This document shows positions 1,771 through 11,146 of a DNA stretch of 33,182 bases, one piece after another; the first letter of the stretch is position 1; the number at the start of each line of letters is the position of its first letter. This DNA comes from a virus (Duplodnaviria; Caudoviricetes). The stretch spans positions 1-33,182 of the IMG/VR virus record IMGVR_UViG_3300025470_000055. The stretch is one strand, 5' to 3'. The notes below the pieces were generated by a model. The model had not been told where the DNA came from and did no database searches. It was given only the letters and a program-made list of their open reading frames with translations. The position numbers were made by a program, and so were the translations under genes.

Positions 1771-3666
1771 ATGCCATTGAATCCTAAAGCCTCAGTCAGC
1801 CACAACATCTCTGAAATGGTTCGTGCTGGTCATCCGCAGAATCAGGCTGTTGCAGCCGCGTTGAATGTTGCGCGTAACGCAAAGGCTATGGGTGGGGCAG
1901 AGGATTCTTTTTCGTTAAAAAATAATTATTTTAGGAGAACTAACACTGGTGTCGATACGGGTGCGGGTTATTCAATGTATGCGGCTGGGGATCCAGAAAG
2001 AATATCGAATTATGGAAAAAATCTTTATATGCTAGACAAATCAAAAATTTCTCCTAAAGAAATTATTGACGTAACTCATCCTAAATTTAAAAATTTAATG
2101 TTTCGCTCTTTAATAAATAAAAGAGATGAAATTGATCATAAGGTTGGTTTATTAGACGCGAGCCCTCATGAATGGAAAGAATTTGCCAAAAATATAACTG
2201 AAGAAACCAACCCAAAAGATATTGTAGATAGTGCAGGAACGTGGGACATGCATGATTCTTTAGTTCCTCATATATGGGAACATGTAATGGAGCCTAATGG
2301 ATGGACTGTTGCAAAAACACATGATGGCGCAATTTCATTTGATCCTTCTCACTCTAAACAAATACATGATGAAAATGAGATAGAGCATATCCTCCGTGCC
2401 ACAGGCGGCGGATTATATGCAAACATTCATGCGAAGCAGGAGCGTATTGCTCACGGGTCGCACGAGCACATGCGTAAACCAGGCGCAAAAGGCGCACCCA
2501 CCGCAGAGGCGTTTAGGGCATCTGAACGGACGGCTAAAGCCGATGGTGGGTTCTTACCTGTTGGGAATCCTGAAAGAAACGATAATTTTAAAAATTGGTT
2601 TGGAAAAAGCAAAATAGTGACTAAAAATGGTAATCCGTTGATAGTTTATCATAGTTCTCCTGAAGATTTTGATAAATTTAAATATACAACGGATAAAACT
2701 ACTGGTGTAAAAACTAATGGTTTTTATTTTACACCTGACAAAAATTATTCATATATATCAGGACAAGGTGAAGGCAGAAAGGTTTATCCAGTTCATGTAA
2801 AAATGGAAAATCCTTATTTTACAGATCGCCCTCATGTAATTGAAGGTTTAAATTCTGCATCTGATGCACCTGCTTTTATTCAAAAGTTAAAAGATATGGG
2901 GCATGATGGTGTAATTTATTCAAATCCAAAAGATATAGAAAAATCAGCTACAGGTTTTGCTATTGATTCCCCTCAAATATTCGCTTTTCATCCACATCAA
3001 ATCAAATCAGCCATTGGCAACAACGGACAATTTGACCCAACAAATTCGGATATAACAAAGAAAGTTGGCGGTTACATAGCCAAAGCCGATGGAGGCGGAT
3101 TCAGCAATAACCAACAGCTAGGGCATGTGCCAGAACTGGCTCCCGTGCCAAAAGCGCCGACAATGGGCAATAAGGTAGTTGTGCATGAGGGGCCAATTCA
3201 CAGCCCTGTAGCTGGCCGCACAGACCATTTGCCGATGCACGTCAAATCAGGCTCATACGTCATTCCAGCCGATATTATCGGCGCAATGGGTGAAGGCAAT
3301 ACTATGGCTGGATTTAAAGTTGCCCGCCGTATGTTTTCATCTAATCCATATTTTCAGAAGAGCATGAGTCCCTATGGTTCATCTTCGCCGATTTATAACT
3401 CAGACGAAAAGCCCTACGGGGCGCGGGCAGCAGGTGGTGGAACGCCAGGCATCGGGCACAATGGCGCACCGCAGGATGACGAAGACGACGACCTTGTTCC
3501 GATTGTTGCAGCGGGCGGTGAATATGTTATTTCTCCGCAGGATGTGACACGACTAGGCGAAGATGATATAGATGATGGACATAAAACTTTGGATTCATTC
3601 GTTACAAAATACCGCAAGAAAACTATTAAAGTTTTGCAAAACCTTCCTGGGCCTCATCGTGATTAA
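1771..3666 (+). CDS. Modular (polyvalent) protein with ADP-ribosyltransferase-like domains separated by AxGG linkers
   Basis: GAGG RBS before the ATG. The 2551-3057 segment (NFKNWFGKSKIV..G.PLIVYH..GFYFT..VYPVHVKMENP..GHDGVI..QIKSAIGNNGQFDP) matches the ART-PolyVal type domain. The 1897-2394 segment looks like a second, more divergent ART-like fold. The C-terminus carries two GP...D.LP...G.YVI repeats. Confidence 0.75.
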   Translation: MPLNPKASVSHNISEMVRAGHPQNQAVAAALNVARNAKAMGGAEDSFSLKNNYFRRTNTGVDTGAGYSMYAAGDPERISNYGKNLYMLDKSKISPKEIIDVTHPKFKNLMFRSLINKRDEIDHKVGLLDASPHEWKEFAKNITEETNPKDIVDSAGTWDMHDSLVPHIWEHVMEPNGWTVAKTHDGAISFDPSHSKQIHDENEIEHILRATGGGLYANIHAKQERIAHGSHEHMRKPGAKGAPTAEAFRASERTAKADGGFLPVGNPERNDNFKNWFGKSKIVTKNGNPLIVYHSSPEDFDKFKYTTDKTTGVKTNGFYFTPDKNYSYISGQGEGRKVYPVHVKMENPYFTDRPHVIEGLNSASDAPAFIQKLKDMGHDGVIYSNPKDIEKSATGFAIDSPQIFAFHPHQIKSAIGNNGQFDPTNSDITKKVGGYIAKADGGGFSNNQQLGHVPELAPVPKAPTMGNKVVVHEGPIHSPVAGRTDHLPMHVKSGSYVIPADIIGAMGEGNTMAGFKVARRMFSSNPYFQKSMSPYGSSSPIYNSDEKPYGARAAGGGTPGIGHNGAPQDDEDDDLVPIVAAGGEYVISPQDVTRLGEDDIDDGHKTLDSFVTKYRKKTIKVLQNLPGPHRD

Positions 3667-4147
3667 CATTAAAAAATTCACCATGCAATTTTTTAGCCGC
3701 CCTGCAATATGCTTCATGGGCAAGTTCTTTTGTTGGATAGCATCCAAGATAAATGTCTTTTTTATTATGTTTAACTTTTGCCTCCCAACAATTAAATTTA
3801 ATCCATTTTTTAAAAGATACGCCTTTCAATCCATGTTTATTTGTAGTTTTGCTATTTGCTCTGTTTTGCCCATGCTGGGCTTGCCGCAAATTTTCAATTC
3901 TATTGTCAGATTTATTTCTGTTAATATGATCAATTTCATTGGAAGGCCATTCTTTGTTTATGTAAAACCAAGCAAGTCTATGGGCAGCATAAGTTTTACC
4001 GCCAACTTCAATGCGAATATATCCATTATGATCAAGGCATCCAGCCGGATTTCCTTCTTTTACTTTTGGACGAGATTTTGTCCAATGAAACAATCCTGTT
4101 TCAAGATTGTAGTGCAAAAGTTCAATAAGTTTGCTATGTTCAATCAT
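3626..4147 (-). CDS. HNH homing endonuclease with C-terminal AP2-like DNA-binding domain
   Basis: AHRLAWFY...EIDHINRNKSDNRIENLR (HNH_3-type) followed by GLKGVSF..WEAKV..YLGCY.T.ELAHEAY..AA.KLHGEF (AP2). Lies antisense within the structural operon. Confidence 0.92.
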   Translation of the reverse strand: MIEHSKLIELLHYNLETGLFHWTKSRPKVKEGNPAGCLDHNGYIRIEVGGKTYAAHRLAWFYINKEWPSNEIDHINRNKSDNRIENLRQAQHGQNRANSKTTNKHGLKGVSFKKWIKFNCWEAKVKHNKKDIYLGCYPTKELAHEAYCRAAKKLHGEFFNVNHDEAQEGFAKL

Positions 4148-4182
4148 AATTCGTTTATACCAGTTTTTTGGAGAGACTGCAA
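4148..4182 (-). promoter_or_regulatory. Sigma70-type promoter for the HNH gene, probably producing a leaderless mRNA
   Basis: The minus strand reads TTGCAG-N17-TATAAA with an extended -10 (TGgTATAAA), then only 6 nt (cgaatt) before the ATG at 4147. No Shine-Dalgarno sequence is present. Confidence 0.55.
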
Positions 4183-4197
4183 CGGAGAAAATGTTTT

Positions 4198-4713
4198 ATG
4201 ACAAATAGCCCACAGATTAGACTAGGAACGCCATCTGATGAAGCGCAAATGTTGGAGTTAGCGTTAAAGGCATGGGAAGAAAACGGCATTAAAAACGTAA
4301 ACCCAGAAAAGATGCTGGGTATGATTAAACCTGCCCTTTATTTGTGGCAGGGTCTTGTTGGCATCATTGGTGCACCTGGAGAACGCATCGAGGCGGCAAT
4401 ATTGTTAAGAACCAGTCAGATGTGGTACTCTGACGATTGGATTATTGAGGAGAAGGCTATTTTTGTTGATCCTGAATTTAGGTCAACAAAAGAATCGCAA
4501 AACAGAGAAAAAAGAAAAACAGGACATGCGAGGGCATTGTGCGATTTTTCAAAGCGAGTTGCTAATGAGTTGAATTTGCCTCTATTGATTGGTGTATTAT
4601 CAAATCAACGAACAGAGGCAAAAATTCGGCTTTATGAACGCAATTTTGGGGCGCAAGCCGGAGCCTTCTTTTTATACAATGCCAATACTGGGCATACAAT
4701 TATGGAGCACTGA
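4198..4713 (+). CDS. GNAT-fold (acetyltransferase-like) protein of the virion operon
   Basis: ATG at 4198 after GGAG. Contains IRLGTPSD...EKAIFVDPEFR...GHARAL...RLYERNFG, the GNAT motif-A pattern. Sits directly upstream of the ejection proteins. Confidence 0.7.
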   Translation: MTNSPQIRLGTPSDEAQMLELALKAWEENGIKNVNPEKMLGMIKPALYLWQGLVGIIGAPGERIEAAILLRTSQMWYSDDWIIEEKAIFVDPEFRSTKESQNREKRKTGHARALCDFSKRVANELNLPLLIGVLSNQRTEAKIRLYERNFGAQAGAFFLYNANTGHTIMEH

Positions 4714-4715
4714 AT

Positions 4716-7700
4716 ATGGGTGGCAAGACTGGCACTTCGACGAGTACCACTACAATACCCCCACAGGTATTGGCGCGGTACAATTCTGTCAACTCACAGG
4801 CTCAGGGTGTTGCGGCAACGCCGTTCCAGCAATACAGCACAAACCCCAATGCCTTTGTTGCGCCAGTCAATCAACAGCAATACGCGGGCATAGGTGGAAT
4901 CAATCAAGCTGCAAATATGGCACAGCCTGCTTTTGGTGCGGCAGAAGCTGGAACATTCAATGCGACGCAACAGGCTACTCCACAGGGATTTCAATCCGGC
5001 GTTTCCAATTATATGGACCCGTTTTTAAATACGGCTGTTCAGGGCACTGTTAATCAGCTTGAAAATGTTAATCAGCAACAGCAACAGGGTATGTTGGGAA
5101 ATGATATTTCTCAGGGCGCATTTGGCGGTGATCGTGCAAATATTGGCCTTGGCAATTTGATGAATCAGCAAAACCTTGCTCTTGGACAAACAGTTTCGGG
5201 CATGGAGAATCAAGGATTCCAAGACGCTGCACAGAACTATCAGACTGGCATTAACCAGCAGTTAGCCGGATCAAATCAGCTTGGCAATCTTGGCGCGGGC
5301 GCTCAACAATCGGCTATTGCAGGCGCTCAGGCACAGCTTGGCGCTGGCACAATGGAACAGCAAACACAACAGGCTGGCAATACGGCTCTATATAACCAGT
5401 TTCAGCAACAGCAGGCGTATCCATTCCAAGTGGCGCAATTCTTGGCAAACATTGCCGAGGGCACTGGTGCACTGTCTGGGTCGTCTACAACGTCTACGCA
5501 GCCAATGCCTTTCTTCTCTGATCGTCGATTGAAGGAGAACATCAAGAAGGTCGGTAAGGCAAATAATGGCCTGCCCATTTACACCTACAACTATAAGAAT
5601 GACCCTACAGAGCAGACGCATATCGGCTTTATGGCTGATGAGGTTGAGAAAAAGCATCCTGATGCAGTTGGCTTGGCTGGCGGATATAAAACTGTTGATT
5701 ATGAAAAGGCCGCACGTCCCGCAAAGTTTTCAGGCGGTGCTTTGTCCTCAGAAGGCGGATTAGTTGTCCCGCAACATGCCGGAATGGGTTTTGCAGAGGG
5801 CGGTACTCCTGCAGAGGCTCCAGCCATGCCCGCAGGATTGGCTCACCTTATTGCAATGCAAAATGAAATGCCTGTTAGAGGCGGCGGCATCAATCAAGAT
5901 GTTGCAGCCTCAGCTCAAGCTATTGCGCCACAGAATTTTGTTCCTCCAGAGGCAATGTCAGCGCCAATCAATTATTTTTCTCAGATTACTGATCCAGCGG
6001 CAAGTCCTGCGGCGGCACCTCAGAAACATACTACTGACACTACAGGGTTAATGCCTAACCATAACAATCAAATGTTTAATTTGAGCAATGATCCAACGGC
6101 ATCATACTCTGGTTATGGCAATCAAAATTCACCTTCTGAATATGGGCCAGGGCCAGGCATGGGGCTTGCTGCGGGTGGCCGTATTGGTAAAGAAGGTGGC
6201 GGTAGTGTTTATGATATGATTGCACAGCAACAGGCGATCTATGACCAGTTGTTAAAGGGTATTCCAACCTCACGCAATATTGCTACAGGTGCACCATCTC
6301 AACAGCATCAGTTGCTGGGCGCTAATCAACCTAAGTTACAGCAGCCACAAAGCGGGTTGCAGCAGCTTGGCGGTGTTTCTGGCCTTATAGGTTTGGGCAA
6401 AGAAGCATCGCAGGGATATGATTGGGCAAAGGCTCACATGCCTTCGTCGTCAACCCCAGCGGCAACAAGTGCCCCAGCTGCGGCGGTGGATTCATCTATA
6501 GCGGCTGCAGCACCTGCTGCACCTATAGCAGATATTGATCCTTCTCTTATTGATGAAAATGGGTTCCGGCCTAATAATGCCCGCGGCGGTGTTGCAGGTC
6601 GGTATGCGGATGGCGGGACGGCGCAGGATGATATGCCGTATAAATACCCGAATGATTTGGATATTCCCAACGAAAACAATAATTACAAATTGAACCAAGA
6701 GGCCAACCCGCAAGGTTCATCCAGTGGCACGTCGCAGTCCGGCCTTGGCATTGGTCAGGCTTTACAGCTTGCAAATATGGCTGGCTCTGCCATGTCCGGC
6801 ATTGGTAGCGCTCTTGGGCTATTGGCTCTTAAAAGCGGTGGTGTAGCTGGTCGAGGGCATTATGCAGATGGTGGTGATCCACGCCCTGATGCAGCCGACA
6901 TAAATGGGCCGATTGATCCAGATTTATCAACTGGAGTAACTGGAAGCTGGAACAGCGAACCTATTGCAAACGCAGGCAGATTAGCAGGAAAGGAAATATC
7001 AAATAATGCAGAAAAAATAGGTTCTTACACTGCGGGTCAATATGTTGATCAATATGGTAATACTGTTGTTCCAAAGGATGTTGCTCGTGAAAATGAATTA
7101 AGAGGGGCGTTTGGCGTTTCTCCTGCATCTGACAGGACTTATCAGGAACAACCAAATCTTGGTTTAAAAAGTGATATAGCCGCTGGATATTTAAATCAAA
7201 ATCTTGCACCCGCGCTTAACCCAGAAGAAACAGCTCTTATTTCTGGAAAGCAGACCAACCCCGTTGTCTCGACAGATGTTGTTCCAGCCGGCGGGAACCA
7301 ATATCAGGAAGCAGGTCTTAATGGCCCATCTGCTACTATTGATAAACCTAAAATAGCGCCAGTTAAAACAGGCGTTAAGCCGAATGGTGCAGGTTCTTCT
7401 GCCGCGCCACAAACACCCAATACACAAGCCGCAGCGGCTCCCGCCCCCGACACGTCGCAGGGGCTGGGAAGCGCTAAAAGCTGGTTTGATGATGCGGGCA
7501 ACCGCAATATGGCATTGTCTATCTTGTCCGGCCTTGGACATATGGCTGGATCAAACAGCCGCTATCTTGGCTCTGCCATATTGCAGGGTCTTGGCGGCGG
7601 CGCTGAAACTTATGGAACACTGCAAGGTCAGGCTGCTGATATTGCTCGTAAACAAGCAGAAACTGCTCAGATAAGTCAGAAAACTGCACAGCAAGATTTC

Positions 7701-8672
7701 TTCACGCCTCCTGGTCAAGAACCAAAAGTTCTTATGCCAAACAATCAAACTTGGACGTTGAAACAGTGGAGAGATGCAGGTCAGCCGCCAACACGCAGCC
7801 AATCTGCAACTGGATTAACTGGTGCAACAAATAATGCTGGCCAAGTACCTGTTCGTCCTGTTTCGCAGCCGCAAGTTACAACTTTTGATCCAGTTGTAAA
7901 TGGTGTGGGTGATTCTGGTGTATCTTCTGCAAAAGCAGACGCGCAAAATTGGTATAATACCGATCCAGATGTGAAAAATGGAATCATTAAACAAAATCAA
8001 AACATTGAAAACAACATAGCTAGCAATGCTCAAGCCGCAGCCGATCAAAATCGCCAGCTTATGCTGTTCGCAAAAGATTTAGCATCGCAGCCTGATAATA
8101 ACTTTTTAACTGGCGGACCTTTAAATAATACAGTTTTGACGGCAGCAAAATATTACAACAATATAGCCTATGGTTTAGGGCTTCCAAAAGTTGATGAAAA
8201 AGATGTAGATAATGCCGCAGTTATCAATAAAATGAGCAGCGGAATCAATCTTTCAACAGCAAATGCATCTGAAATGCATAATATGATGGCATTGCGAGAA
8301 GCGGTATTAAACACCCCTGGCACTGTAATGTCTAAATCTGCAGCATTGCAAGCAGTTTCAGGGATGATTGTTAAAAACCAGCCAGCTTTAGATCAAAATG
8401 GTTATTTGCAAGATTATAAAAAGTTGGCTTCCAGCGAATCTGGAATGAGTGGAACTTATAATGCAAATAATGCTTTAACTTCGTTTAGAGCTGATCACAC
8501 TAACGATCAATATGCAAAAGAACAAAAACTTTTAAATGCTTTCTTTACGGCTAAAGACCCAACAACTGGGCGGACACATTTTGAAATGTATCAAAATGGT
8601 GAAATTACTCCGCAACAGATTGACAAATGGTATGGCCGTAAAGGGTTGCACCGCATTATACAAACTCAGTAA
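4716..8672 (+). CDS. Large internal virion / ejection protein with internal peptidase S74 (intramolecular chaperone autoprocessing) domain
   Basis: MGGK..TSTSTTTIP start and a Gln/Gly/Ala-rich N-terminus typical of DNA-pilot proteins. SDRRLKENIKKVG...GLPIYTYNYK...IGFMADEVEKKHPDAV...GYKTVDY at 5517-5711 is an S74 signature. Confidence 0.75.
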   Translation: MGGKTGTSTSTTTIPPQVLARYNSVNSQAQGVAATPFQQYSTNPNAFVAPVNQQQYAGIGGINQAANMAQPAFGAAEAGTFNATQQATPQGFQSGVSNYMDPFLNTAVQGTVNQLENVNQQQQQGMLGNDISQGAFGGDRANIGLGNLMNQQNLALGQTVSGMENQGFQDAAQNYQTGINQQLAGSNQLGNLGAGAQQSAIAGAQAQLGAGTMEQQTQQAGNTALYNQFQQQQAYPFQVAQFLANIAEGTGALSGSSTTSTQPMPFFSDRRLKENIKKVGKANNGLPIYTYNYKNDPTEQTHIGFMADEVEKKHPDAVGLAGGYKTVDYEKAARPAKFSGGALSSEGGLVVPQHAGMGFAEGGTPAEAPAMPAGLAHLIAMQNEMPVRGGGINQDVAASAQAIAPQNFVPPEAMSAPINYFSQITDPAASPAAAPQKHTTDTTGLMPNHNNQMFNLSNDPTASYSGYGNQNSPSEYGPGPGMGLAAGGRIGKEGGGSVYDMIAQQQAIYDQLLKGIPTSRNIATGAPSQQHQLLGANQPKLQQPQSGLQQLGGVSGLIGLGKEASQGYDWAKAHMPSSSTPAATSAPAAAVDSSIAAAAPAAPIADIDPSLIDENGFRPNNARGGVAGRYADGGTAQDDMPYKYPNDLDIPNENNNYKLNQEANPQGSSSGTSQSGLGIGQALQLANMAGSAMSGIGSALGLLALKSGGVAGRGHYADGGDPRPDAADINGPIDPDLSTGVTGSWNSEPIANAGRLAGKEISNNAEKIGSYTAGQYVDQYGNTVVPKDVARENELRGAFGVSPASDRTYQEQPNLGLKSDIAAGYLNQNLAPALNPEETALISGKQTNPVVSTDVVPAGGNQYQEAGLNGPSATIDKPKIAPVKTGVKPNGAGSSAAPQTPNTQAAAAPAPDTSQGLGSAKSWFDDAGNRNMALSILSGLGHMAGSNSRYLGSAILQGLGGGAETYGTLQGQAADIARKQAETAQISQKTAQQDFFTPPGQEPKVLMPNNQTWTLKQWRDAGQPPTRSQSATGLTGATNNAGQVPVRPVSQPQVTTFDPVVNGVGDSGVSSAKADAQNWYNTDPDVKNGIIKQNQNIENNIASNAQAAADQNRQLMLFAKDLASQPDNNFLTGGPLNNTVLTAAKYYNNIAYGLGLPKVDEKDVDNAAVINKMSSGINLSTANASEMHNMMALREAVLNTPGTVMSKSAALQAVSGMIVKNQPALDQNGYLQDYKKLASSESGMSGTYNANNALTSFRADHTNDQYAKEQKLLNAFFTAKDPTTGRTHFEMYQNGEITPQQIDKWYGRKGLHRIIQTQ

Positions 8673-8683
8673 AGGGTTTAAAA

Positions 8684-11146
8684 ATGGCTAATGAACTTGA
8701 TGATTTTGAAGCCCGTAATGCGGAAGCCGCGAAAGCAGCTTTAGATCAATCAGACAATACTAATGTTAATTCTGATGATGATTTTGAAGCCCGCAATGCG
8801 GCTGCTGCTAAAGCAGCGATTTCTGGTGAGTCATCACCTGTTGCTACAGACAGCGGGACATCTGAAGAACCGATAAAAAATTGGGCAGAAACTCCAGATG
8901 CTTCTACATTAAGTGCCGGACAAATAGCTCTTAATACGGCTAAAAATATTATACCGTCGGCAGGTCGTGCGGGCGTTGGCCTTTATCATGCAGTGCGCCA
9001 TCCTGTTGAAACAGGAAAAACCTTGTGGCAGTTGGGCATTGGCCTTGATTCAAAATTAGAGGGACTGGCCGGAGTCAAACAAGACCCTGCACAAAAGGCT
9101 AAAGATGAGGCTGTGGCTGATGCTTTAGGAAATTCTTATGCCGAAAAATATGGCTCCGTAAATAAAGCATTAAACACGCTTCAATCAGACCCAATCAATA
9201 GCGTACTTCTTGATCTTTCGTCCGTAACACCATTTGCAGAAGCATCACTAGGGCGTGTCCCTGGTGTTGTTGGCACTGTAGGAAGGGCTATAGGAACAGC
9301 AGGTGAAGCTATCAATCCATTTAACCCTGGTGGCGTATTAACGGGTGGCTTATCAAAAACAGCAAAGCCCACAAGTGGGTTACTGGACAATACGGGTAAG
9401 TGGACTTCTGATGCTGACGCGCAAATTCATGCGGCTAGCCTAGGCTCACTAAGCGCATCTGATTTTATGCACTCCGCTGATCCATCTGTGCAGGCCGCTG
9501 CACATGATATTTTTAGCAAGAAGGGTATTACCCCTGCAACGGTAAATGAAGCTGTACTACGCTCTCAGGGGCTTGAGGCTCCAGCGTCTATGGTGACAAA
9601 TACCGCACCTCCTGCGGCTGTAGCTAATGAAGTACAAGCCGCAAAAATAAACAACTATAGTAAAATTGGCGATACGGCTTCAACCATAGCTGGTGCGTCT
9701 GCACCAATCGAAGGCGGGTTAGGTGAGGCATTAGAAAAAGGCCAATTAGCCGCTAAAAACAATTATAATGGTTTGTATCAAAAGGTCGCGGATAATGCAG
9801 GAACATTTCATCCTAGCGTTTTGAATGATGTTCTCCCCAATGTTCAACAGGAATTAGCTAGTTATAAATTGCCATCAACTTTAAGCATGATGGAAAATGC
9901 CCCAAGCATGGTTCAATCAAATGAAGCCATGCGGTATTTAGCGAATAACGTTTTAAAACAAAAATTGCCTCTTGGTTCTAATTTGACAATGCCTAATTTA
10001 GAGGCTGTTAGAAAAGAATTAAACGGATTTTTATCTGATGCGCGTGGATCAGACATTCAAGGCATGAGGGCTATTATTGACGGATATGATAAAACCATCA
10101 TGAATGGTGCAAAATCCGGCATGTTTTCACCTGCGGATTCATCTATTAGTAAATTAGATGCGGGAAATCAAATTGTATCTGATATGAATAATGCTCGTTC
10201 TGCATTTAAACAGTATCAGAACACATATAATAATGCCGCAAATCCAAATAGCACTGCCATTAAAAATGCTACTAAACAATTAACAAACCAGCAGTCTCTT
10301 GACGAGGCGGGAAATGCCTCATCTGCCGGAACGCAAGCCCACATGGTTGCGGAAAAAAACCTTAGCCCGAATTTACTTAATCCCGTTCTTGGACCAGATA
10401 TGTATGACAAGCTGGTTGAGGCAGCGGGCGGCAAAGGTTCTGCCGGAGAGCAGGCTGTTAAAAACCATTTTAAGCAAGCGTTTCTTGAAAATAATAATGG
10501 TCGTTTTGCTCTTAGCAGCAATAAAATGGAGGATTTGCTACATTCTCCTAGCGGAATTATAAAAAATCGCAATATATTTAACCCAGATGAATTATCTCAT
10601 GTTCGTCGAATGCACGAATCTCGCAAAATTTTAGAAGCTAAACCAAATACGTTGCAAAAAGCTAATTCAGCCCTTGGGTCGCACCTTGGTAAACTTGCGG
10701 CCAGAACCGCAATGACTGCAATCGGGTTGCACCTTCACGGTATTCCTGGTGCCCTTATTGGCGGTGGACTCGAACATCTTGGTGAGCATGTTTTATCTGG
10801 TAGCGCACTGAAAAAAGAAATGGCTGGTGCTCCTAAACCTCAAACCAGCCTATTGGGTAAATCCGCAAAAGTTGCAACATTTCCTGTTCGTGCACCCATA
10901 AAACTTGCAAAGGGAATCGCTACTCGCCCTAGGGTATCAAACGCGCTGATCAATGCTGAACAGCAACAACGCCAAGGCCGCGCCGCAGGTGGTAAGGTTG
11001 GATTTGATCATGAAGCTAAGGCGGACAAACTAATTTTGCTTGCAGATAAAATAAAAAAAGACGAAGCTAAAAAAACGTCATCAATTTTAAATGTTGATGA
11101 TAGTACGGTGGCGCGAGCGCTAGCCGTGGTCAATCGCAAAATATGA
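8684..11146 (+). CDS. Large putative internal virion / DNA-transfer protein (820 aa)
   Basis: Long Ala/Gly/Asn-rich helical ORF following the 1318-aa gene, with a duplicated acidic N-terminal motif and a C-terminal module after RAAGG. Confidence 0.65.
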   Translation: MANELDDFEARNAEAAKAALDQSDNTNVNSDDDFEARNAAAAKAAISGESSPVATDSGTSEEPIKNWAETPDASTLSAGQIALNTAKNIIPSAGRAGVGLYHAVRHPVETGKTLWQLGIGLDSKLEGLAGVKQDPAQKAKDEAVADALGNSYAEKYGSVNKALNTLQSDPINSVLLDLSSVTPFAEASLGRVPGVVGTVGRAIGTAGEAINPFNPGGVLTGGLSKTAKPTSGLLDNTGKWTSDADAQIHAASLGSLSASDFMHSADPSVQAAAHDIFSKKGITPATVNEAVLRSQGLEAPASMVTNTAPPAAVANEVQAAKINNYSKIGDTASTIAGASAPIEGGLGEALEKGQLAAKNNYNGLYQKVADNAGTFHPSVLNDVLPNVQQELASYKLPSTLSMMENAPSMVQSNEAMRYLANNVLKQKLPLGSNLTMPNLEAVRKELNGFLSDARGSDIQGMRAIIDGYDKTIMNGAKSGMFSPADSSISKLDAGNQIVSDMNNARSAFKQYQNTYNNAANPNSTAIKNATKQLTNQQSLDEAGNASSAGTQAHMVAEKNLSPNLLNPVLGPDMYDKLVEAAGGKGSAGEQAVKNHFKQAFLENNNGRFALSSNKMEDLLHSPSGIIKNRNIFNPDELSHVRRMHESRKILEAKPNTLQKANSALGSHLGKLAARTAMTAIGLHLHGIPGALIGGGLEHLGEHVLSGSALKKEMAGAPKPQTSLLGKSAKVATFPVRAPIKLAKGIATRPRVSNALINAEQQQRQGRAAGGKVGFDHEAKADKLILLADKIKKDEAKKTSSILNVDDSTVARALAVVNRKI
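8699..8818 (+). repeat. Two-copy 42-bp intragenic repeat encoding DDFEARNA(E/A)AAKAA
   Basis: gatgattttgaagcccg(t/c)aatgcgg... begins at both 8699 and 8777. Confidence 0.9.

Follow-up and report, generated by a model that had tools for sequence, protein, structure and literature searches.

A recurring AxGG motif as a probable processing site, cut before alanine, in putative virion cargo polyproteins of a tailed phage

Why does one short di-glycine motif recur in three large genes of the same phage? The question is raised by a stretch of 33,182 nucleotides (the window) from a member of the Caudoviricetes (IMG/VR record IMGVR_UViG_3300025470_000055), a phage record without head genes. Three open reading frames (ORFs) on the plus strand, of 631 residues (1771..3666), 1318 residues (4716..8672) and 820 residues (8684..11146), contain a basic or aromatic residue followed by A-x-G-G. 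An initial annotation took them for polyproteins, and this reading remains the best one in view of the module borders at the motif, the gain and loss of modules there and the restriction to internal virion-type proteins. With a probability of about 0.6, the motifs are processing sites in virion cargo polyproteins that are cut before the alanine (X/AxGG, the slash marking the predicted bond). The three ORFs would be virion-internal cargo precursors, their modules parted by a joint composed of K, R, Y or F, then A or K, then x-G-G. A cut just before Ala would free a leader, small basic peptides and enzymes such as an ADP-ribosyltransferase inside the particle, and the ejection subunits and a C-terminal tag would likewise be released there as separate pieces. 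Cleavage is preferred because the same string contains a mapped cut in phage T5 and a structure in crAss001 starts on the predicted residue, and because cargo domains are fenced on two sides and the motif is absent from capsid and scaffold.

Distribution of the motif and exchange of modules

All of the motif strings listed in the initial annotation were found in place, the coordinates marking the first base of the basic or aromatic residue. The 631-residue ORF contains K/AMGG (1882..1896), R/ATGG (2395..2409), K/ADGG (2536..2550), the pair K/KVGG and K/ADGG with a spacing of 8 residues (3058..3096), and R/AAGG (3424..3438). In the 1318-residue ORF, a motif-rich middle (5724..6875) holds KFSGG, F/AEGG, L/AAGG with KEGGG, N/ARGG with Y/ADGG, and L/KSGG with Y/ADGG, and the 820-residue ORF has a single R/AAGG (10979..10993) 54 residues ahead of its C-terminus. 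KKVGG, KFSGG, KEGGG and LKSGG are variants without the alanine. A further AxGG, VAAGGE (residues 579-584 of the 631-residue protein), lies inside a predicted folded domain and does not mark a boundary.

The motif is more frequent than composition predicts. When expectations were taken from within-protein shuffles (2000 per ORF), [KRYFH]AxGG was found nine times in the three ORFs against 0.56 expected, a count reached by 0 of 2000 shuffles. The 631-residue ORF contributes five (0.10 expected) and the 1318-residue ORF three (0.29 expected, p 0.004); the one in the 820-residue ORF (0.13 expected, p 0.12) is not significant by itself. The 50 other listed ORFs of the window together contain one, against 0.55 expected, and plain GG is barely enriched (38 vs 29, p 0.04). 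At 271 motif sites the codons are used nearly as in the background, apart from a slight GGC/GGT skew at the first Gly, and the motif is thus kept as protein; a DNA recombination site was rejected on the same ground. Kelch-type YAxGG matches were set aside for their resemblance to designed propeller repeats.

The 631-residue protein consists of a fixed leader, swappable cargo modules and a fixed, doubled C-terminal domain. The basic leader of 38 residues (1771..1884; phrog_2423, E 8e-8) is conserved in homologues and ends in an A-L-x-x-A helix before the first motif, where the T5 precedent predicts a cut at 1884/1885. It is followed by a module of 171 residues with at most a faint ADP-ribosyltransferase (ART)-like match (1885..2397; E 0.28), which in relatives 90-100% identical is absent or exchanged for unrelated modules, and by a small basic module of 47 residues (2398..2538; phrog_16028, profile length 50, E 3e-19), which homologues have or lack as a whole unit. 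The third module, ART-PolyVal (2539..3060; PF18760, E 1.9e-17, above the cut-off), has an ADP-ribosyltransferase fold. The families located between two motifs are phrog_2423 (residues 6-41), phrog_16028 (214-257) and ART-PolyVal/phrog_21376 (270-434). The conserved C-terminal domain (3085..3663) comprises two beta-beta-beta-alpha-alpha repeats, marked by G-S-Y-V and G-E-Y-V, with the R/AAGG motif at 3424..3438 between them; in homologues, cargo is inserted there too.

Orthologues of the protein in 80 viral loci range from 169 to 613 residues, the simplest being leader, motif and C-terminal domain. Among 120 longer homologues are relatives of 467-834 residues whose core is 90-100% identical to that of the window and which differ by whole modules; in such near-identical homologues the junctions of gained, lost or swapped modules fall on the motif. 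Relative to a motif, 669 of 1297 internal BLAST block ends fell at positions -6 to +10, against 278 expected, a count in which the ends are not independent and the core linker is included; block starts peak just ahead of the motif and block ends just past it. That modules border on the motif and that domain gain and loss coincides with it, as had been proposed, is thereby borne out. In a Pfam border test covering 81 of 256 homologues, with overlapping duplicate families removed, one motif lay inside the 31 cargo domains, compared with 30.8 if motifs were evenly spread. A motif was present within 55 residues upstream of 27 of the 31 domains and within 70 residues downstream of 26. The cargo includes ART-PolyVal, InPase, GNAT, NUDIX, methyltransferase and SLT domains, and 248 motif-bounded segments form at least 86 clusters. 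Recombination at the short shared motif would add, drop or swap cargo and leave the precursor intact, because a module would work only if fenced by sites.

The two other ORFs show the motif at definite places. The 1318-residue ejection-type protein (phrog_4287, E 5e-11; phrog_6121, E 3e-25; PF13884) has an N-terminal DNA-ejection part, a Peptidase_S74 intramolecular chaperone (5517..5669; residues 268-318, PF13884 E 1e-11, 45.4 bits against a cut-off of 22), the motif-rich middle and a long C-terminal part. The S74 domain begins with S-D-R-R-L-K at residue 268, which fits the S-D-x-R-L-K start. In 49 orthologues no motif occurs before S74 (4.6 expected), 106 occur in the 550 residues after it (14.9 expected) and seven in the remainder (6.9 expected); ejection-protein matches other than the complete relative MW202675 cover S74 alone. 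The 820-residue protein, probably internal, has a variable body and a conserved tail of 54 residues (10982..11143) ending in D-x-x-V-A-x-A-L, a candidate packaging tag that a cut would remove. Scans of Pfam, PHROG and NCBIfam gave no family match for this ORF, and a search for a cultured relative with its tail found none. Of 37 non-redundant orthologues, 35 have the motif among their final 100 residues, as a rule some 54 from the end; its GG, with the conserved tail behind it, is invariant in all 37.

A neutral flexible joint that has spread by module recombination at a short shared sequence might give rise to some of these patterns. Block ends reach over the motif from either side, a pattern that crossovers inside it would produce, and Gly-Gly suits a linker. 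Arguing against a neutral joint, which we consider very unlikely, are the near-background codon use across the 271 sites, the retention of the motif where nothing swaps, as in the 35 of 37 tails, and its occurrence in unrelated genes and in proteins of T5, lambda, JBD30 and crAss001.

In five complete relatives the motif was confined to internal virion-type proteins: 106 motifs were counted in 33 ORFs of the internal class against 12.0 expected, the class having been assigned after the counts were seen, and 12 in the other 353 ORFs against 11.4 expected. These 33 comprise the three window genes' orthologues, large multidomain ORFs located after the portal gene, and basic low-complexity and small basic proteins. 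No motif was present in the major capsid (n=5), scaffold-position (n=5) or nozzle proteins of the five relatives, and one was present in the five portals.

Some members of this set have peculiarities of their own. Basic low-complexity proteins (L086 47829-48977; G004:8469-10031) contain 5-11 motifs spaced by 8-90 residues, and a basic protein of 90-129 residues near the capsid genes (G001-G005, e.g. G001:45477-45866) contains three; if cut, such motif-rich proteins would give short basic peptides. Post-portal cargo ORFs (L086 40315-42534; G005:20865-23807) end in a motif with three residues past the GG, and the first of them carries GNAT, peptidase M15 and ART-PolyVal domains.

The position of the cut

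The T5 tape measure protein pb2 is cut after R1127, as determined by proteomics and intact-mass spectrometry and reported in the accessible part of the paper (Linares et al. 2023, PMC10038345). In the fetched sequence of 1219 residues, which contains such a motif twice, this bond reads R1127/AEGG, and a cut there leaves 92 residues, in agreement with what could be consulted of PMC12617516. The known cut thus sits before Ala and not after Gly-Gly. Sites of this type, a basic or aromatic residue followed by A-x-G-G, are present in the window proteins. Lambda gpH is shortened by about 14 kDa, and the available text of PMC12617516 calls both the site and the catalyst unknown; the gpH sequence contains F733/ATGG where the cut is expected, a position from which a piece of about 12.5 kDa would be freed, and another motif at 778-782. 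The JBD30 tape measure has two motifs (1019-1023 and 1081-1085); the available excerpt of the JBD30 report gives the authors' guess of an Arg-C site at 1066.

In the crAss001 cargo protein gp45, eight AxGG motifs occur against 1.5 expected. According to the sections of PMC10172136 at hand (Bayfield et al. 2023), its portal-bound segment was modelled as residues 425-552. Residue 425 is the Ala of N/AFGG and the modelled segment runs from this Ala through the GG; the tail-bound helix described in those sections (214-245) falls within the motif-bounded piece 207-260. A motif-bounded insert of 110 residues is present in 13 of 121 gp45 sequences and absent in 108.

These data do not support the analogy on which the initial annotation had relied, the cleavage after Gly-Gly by SUMO-type and African swine fever virus (ASFV) proteases and of bacteriocin leaders. 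A cut after Gly-Gly by a protease of the SUMO/adenain/ASFV or C39 type would explain why it is the GG that never varies in the motif, and lysine- and arginine-rich proteins punctuated by xxGG recall the core precursors of adenovirus and ASFV. However, the T5 scission precedes Ala, and crAss001 gp45 is modelled, in the published portion seen, from A425 through GG. In addition, no clan CE or C39 family was recognized with Pfam in the 49 of 81 genes of MW202675 that were scanned, the window itself being without a head region. We regard such a cut as highly improbable.

An uncleaved tag and the search for a cutting enzyme

A different role for the motif would be that of an uncleaved docking or packaging tag, which imitates the conserved module's first strand and is bound by the C-terminal domain or by some component of the head, such that intact multidomain proteins are loaded into the prohead. 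Motifs at the very C-terminus, with 3-7 residues behind them, the tandem pairs and the 5-11 copies in basic low-complexity proteins are consistent with binding, as is the ordered AFGG in the portal-bound domain of crAss001, going by the part of that paper seen. The Pfam scan of MW202675, in which 49 of 81 genes gave no head protease family, also speaks for a tag. A complex prediction for the C-terminal domain and the 820-residue tail gave a weak pass (0.40 vs 0.00 for the best control), which can be counted in favor of a tag and of processing alike; at least 90% of the contacts were common to the runs, and the partner pLDDT was 51 or more. Of 157 solved pairs 116 attained the mark, as did 2 of 215 mismatched pairs, and passes at 0.60 or under comprised only 18 solved pairs and both mismatches. 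A pass near 0.40 is more often wrong than right unless the pairing is likely beforehand. Arguing against an uncleaved tag are the identity of the string with the mapped cut in T5 and the fencing of cargo domains on both sides (27 of 31 upstream, 26 of 31 downstream), where one tag per protein would do. A tag is possible but rather unlikely.

If the motif is cleaved, the 631-residue protein's C-terminal domain is tentatively the leading candidate for its reader, and it might also serve as an anchor. It has 2611 representatives at E <= 0.001 and exactly one strong match per genome in the five complete relatives. In the AF2 model the two repeats form blocks with a pLDDT of 93-98 in their cores, the motifs lying in low-confidence stretches. 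Sequence searches of the PDB with the domain gave nothing credible. In fold searches with the model, none of the PDB matches reached E <= 0.001, a second search across 48,161 chains had a top Z of 3.1, and BFVD returned three uncharacterised proteins of uncultured phages; these fold results show neither a new fold nor the absence of protease activity. Profiles of tape measure PHROGs match 3-11 of 82 members of the domain family, the best at E 0.0004 and scattered.

The MW202675 scan showed three kinds of peptidase: S74, M15 (within a cargo ORF) and the product of a SprT-like gene. An S74 domain makes one cut in cis, at the point where it begins, and therefore does not explain many sites in several genes. 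The cut could also be made by a host protease or by a phage gene that has not been recognized. A gene of 169-210 residues after the scaffold-position gene (G005:31068-31598; L268 11068-11595), present in 5/5 complete relatives and without a Pfam or NCBIfam match, is a candidate protease or assembly factor.

It might further be proposed that one code operates across tailed phages, in which X/A-x-G-G is cut by a module of about 45 residues (AxGG...GE[F/Y]V). In the tape measures of T5 and lambda and in crAss cargo the module would act in cis, and here a doubled reader acting in trans would fragment a genome-wide set of cargo polyproteins into injected enzymes and DNA-binding peptides. If true, this would name site and catalyst of lambda gpH cleavage and make crAss001 gp45 several peptides, but the proposal is unlikely at present. 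The AxGG...GE module of JBD30 gp46 (L207 3644-3868; PDB 8ZDO chain S) has matches in 1270 phage records, chiefly tape measures among the 60 matches listed, and occurs twice in mycobacteriophage Douge.

Several points weigh against cleavage. The cut is known from T5 alone, and the present phage family is known from sequence only. In T5, the accessible text does not report the second motif, R138-ALGG, as cut, and a free motif may therefore not suffice; moreover, the T5 cut site heads a G-E-containing module. The crAss001 authors assume an uncut gp45 chain that bridges 420 angstrom, and the word element 'cleav' does not occur in the text of PMC10172136 as available; the model could start at A425 simply because a domain begins there. 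Binding would equally suit motifs that lie 3-7 residues from a C-terminus and pairs with a spacing of 8-11 residues, any linker would avoid folded domains, and the internal class was drawn after the fact, as stated above. The C-terminal domain displays no nameable catalytic motif, and head protease families were not found by Pfam in the 49 of 81 MW202675 genes scanned. Its resemblance to the module that comes after the motif near tape measure C-termini is weak in hhalign (E 0.0018 for lambda and 0.0071 for JBD30, probabilities of 15% and 5%), and our own hidden Markov models gave nothing significant (best E 0.07); when lambda and crAss modules of greater diversity were sought, near-identical copies alone came back, which makes the profile-profile comparison shallow. 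Neither repeat nor any of the 82 family members matched crAss_CARG1 (PF25725) in Pfam, and hhalign gave E 0.34. CARG1 was not listed in the fold searches with the AF2 model either; Atlas feature scores of 0.84-0.86 between the two domains are leads only.

Gene neighbourhood and comparison with known systems

The gene order in the window is a nozzle-type gene (phrog_3287), the 631-residue ORF, an antisense HNH gene, a gene with a weak GNAT match, and the 1318- and 820-residue ORFs. This context, with the 631-residue ORF between nozzle and ejection genes, suggests that the products of the three ORFs may be packaged internal virion proteins. MW202675 has the same order, its portal and adaptor are of SU10 type, and neither a sheath nor a tape measure is annotated in it, from which the window phage is inferred to be short-tailed. 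The HNH-AP2 endonuclease gene (3626-4147, minus strand) overlaps the end of the 631-residue ORF in antisense and precedes the GNAT gene; in most mapped relatives the GNAT gene follows directly, without the HNH-AP2 gene between. The GNAT-like gene (4168-4713) adjoins the ejection gene and is conserved in 5/5 complete relatives. An A-L-x-x-A helix is found at the leader end (1852-1881), at the C-terminus of the 820-residue protein (11108-11143) and at the ends of post-portal cargo ORFs (L086 40315-47812). In homologues, 122 of 159 such helices are at most 12 residues from a motif, mostly the leader's own; the helix is a candidate packaging helix.

Literature searches, with most subscription papers outside their reach, found no description of the motif or of such a system. 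Closest in architecture are the polyvalent proteins, in which unrelated conflict enzymes are joined in one polypeptide whose early delivery is presumed (Iyer et al. 2017, PMC5512222, as far as accessible). The 631-residue protein fits them with its ART-PolyVal module beside other modules, and its homologues with, among others, InPase and GNAT domains; the architecture is variable, with at least two unrelated conflict-type domains in one polypeptide. In the accessible text of PMC5512222, the proposed processing is ascribed to embedded zincin-like or assemblin-like peptidases, the zincin-like MPTase being present in about 36% of polyvalent proteins and not obligatory, and a boundary motif is not described. 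Neither peptidase family was found with Pfam in the 631-residue protein or 81 homologues, a scan that divergent forms could escape.

As in the prohead-protease maturation of head cargo in large myoviruses such as SPN3US (gp245; PMC10052503, in the part available), several packaged proteins would be cut at one short motif and lose leaders or tags. T4 gp21 is a further case of such maturation. Here, by contrast, no such protease family was found among the 49 MW202675 genes scanned, capsid and scaffold are without the motif, and the conserved residues lie mainly downstream of the predicted cut.

With crAss001 gp45 (C1; PF25725; PMC10172136, accessible sections), the window proteins share the location of an AxGG-punctuated cargo gene behind that of the tail nozzle, the small basic modules that the motifs enclose, the gain and loss of modules there and a compact domain that begins with AxGG. 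They differ in that no sequence match of significance links the C-terminal domain to CARG1, which the fold searches did not list, and that the motif enrichment in crAss001 is limited to gp45. The conversion of T5 pb2 to pb2* and pb2C (PMC10038345) and of lambda gpH to gpH* and gpHC (PMC12617516) resembles the proposed processing in the identical string at the T5 cut, in the short G-E-containing module after the site and in the ejection of the protein from the virion; the accessible parts of neither paper describe the motif as such. Their single cut in the tail-lumen ruler of long-tailed phages contrasts with the many sites found here in several head-cargo genes, mostly without an adjacent module, of a phage with podovirus-like gene content.

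If the motif is cut before Ala, lambda gpH would be cleaved at F733/A734, the site left open along with its catalyst in PMC12617516, and crAss001 gp45 at N424/A425 and its other motifs, such that the 420-angstrom tether to the portal would no longer be needed. The motif would then show how large hypothetical virion genes can be divided into the effectors delivered and would explain how phages swap early anti-host enzymes like cassettes.

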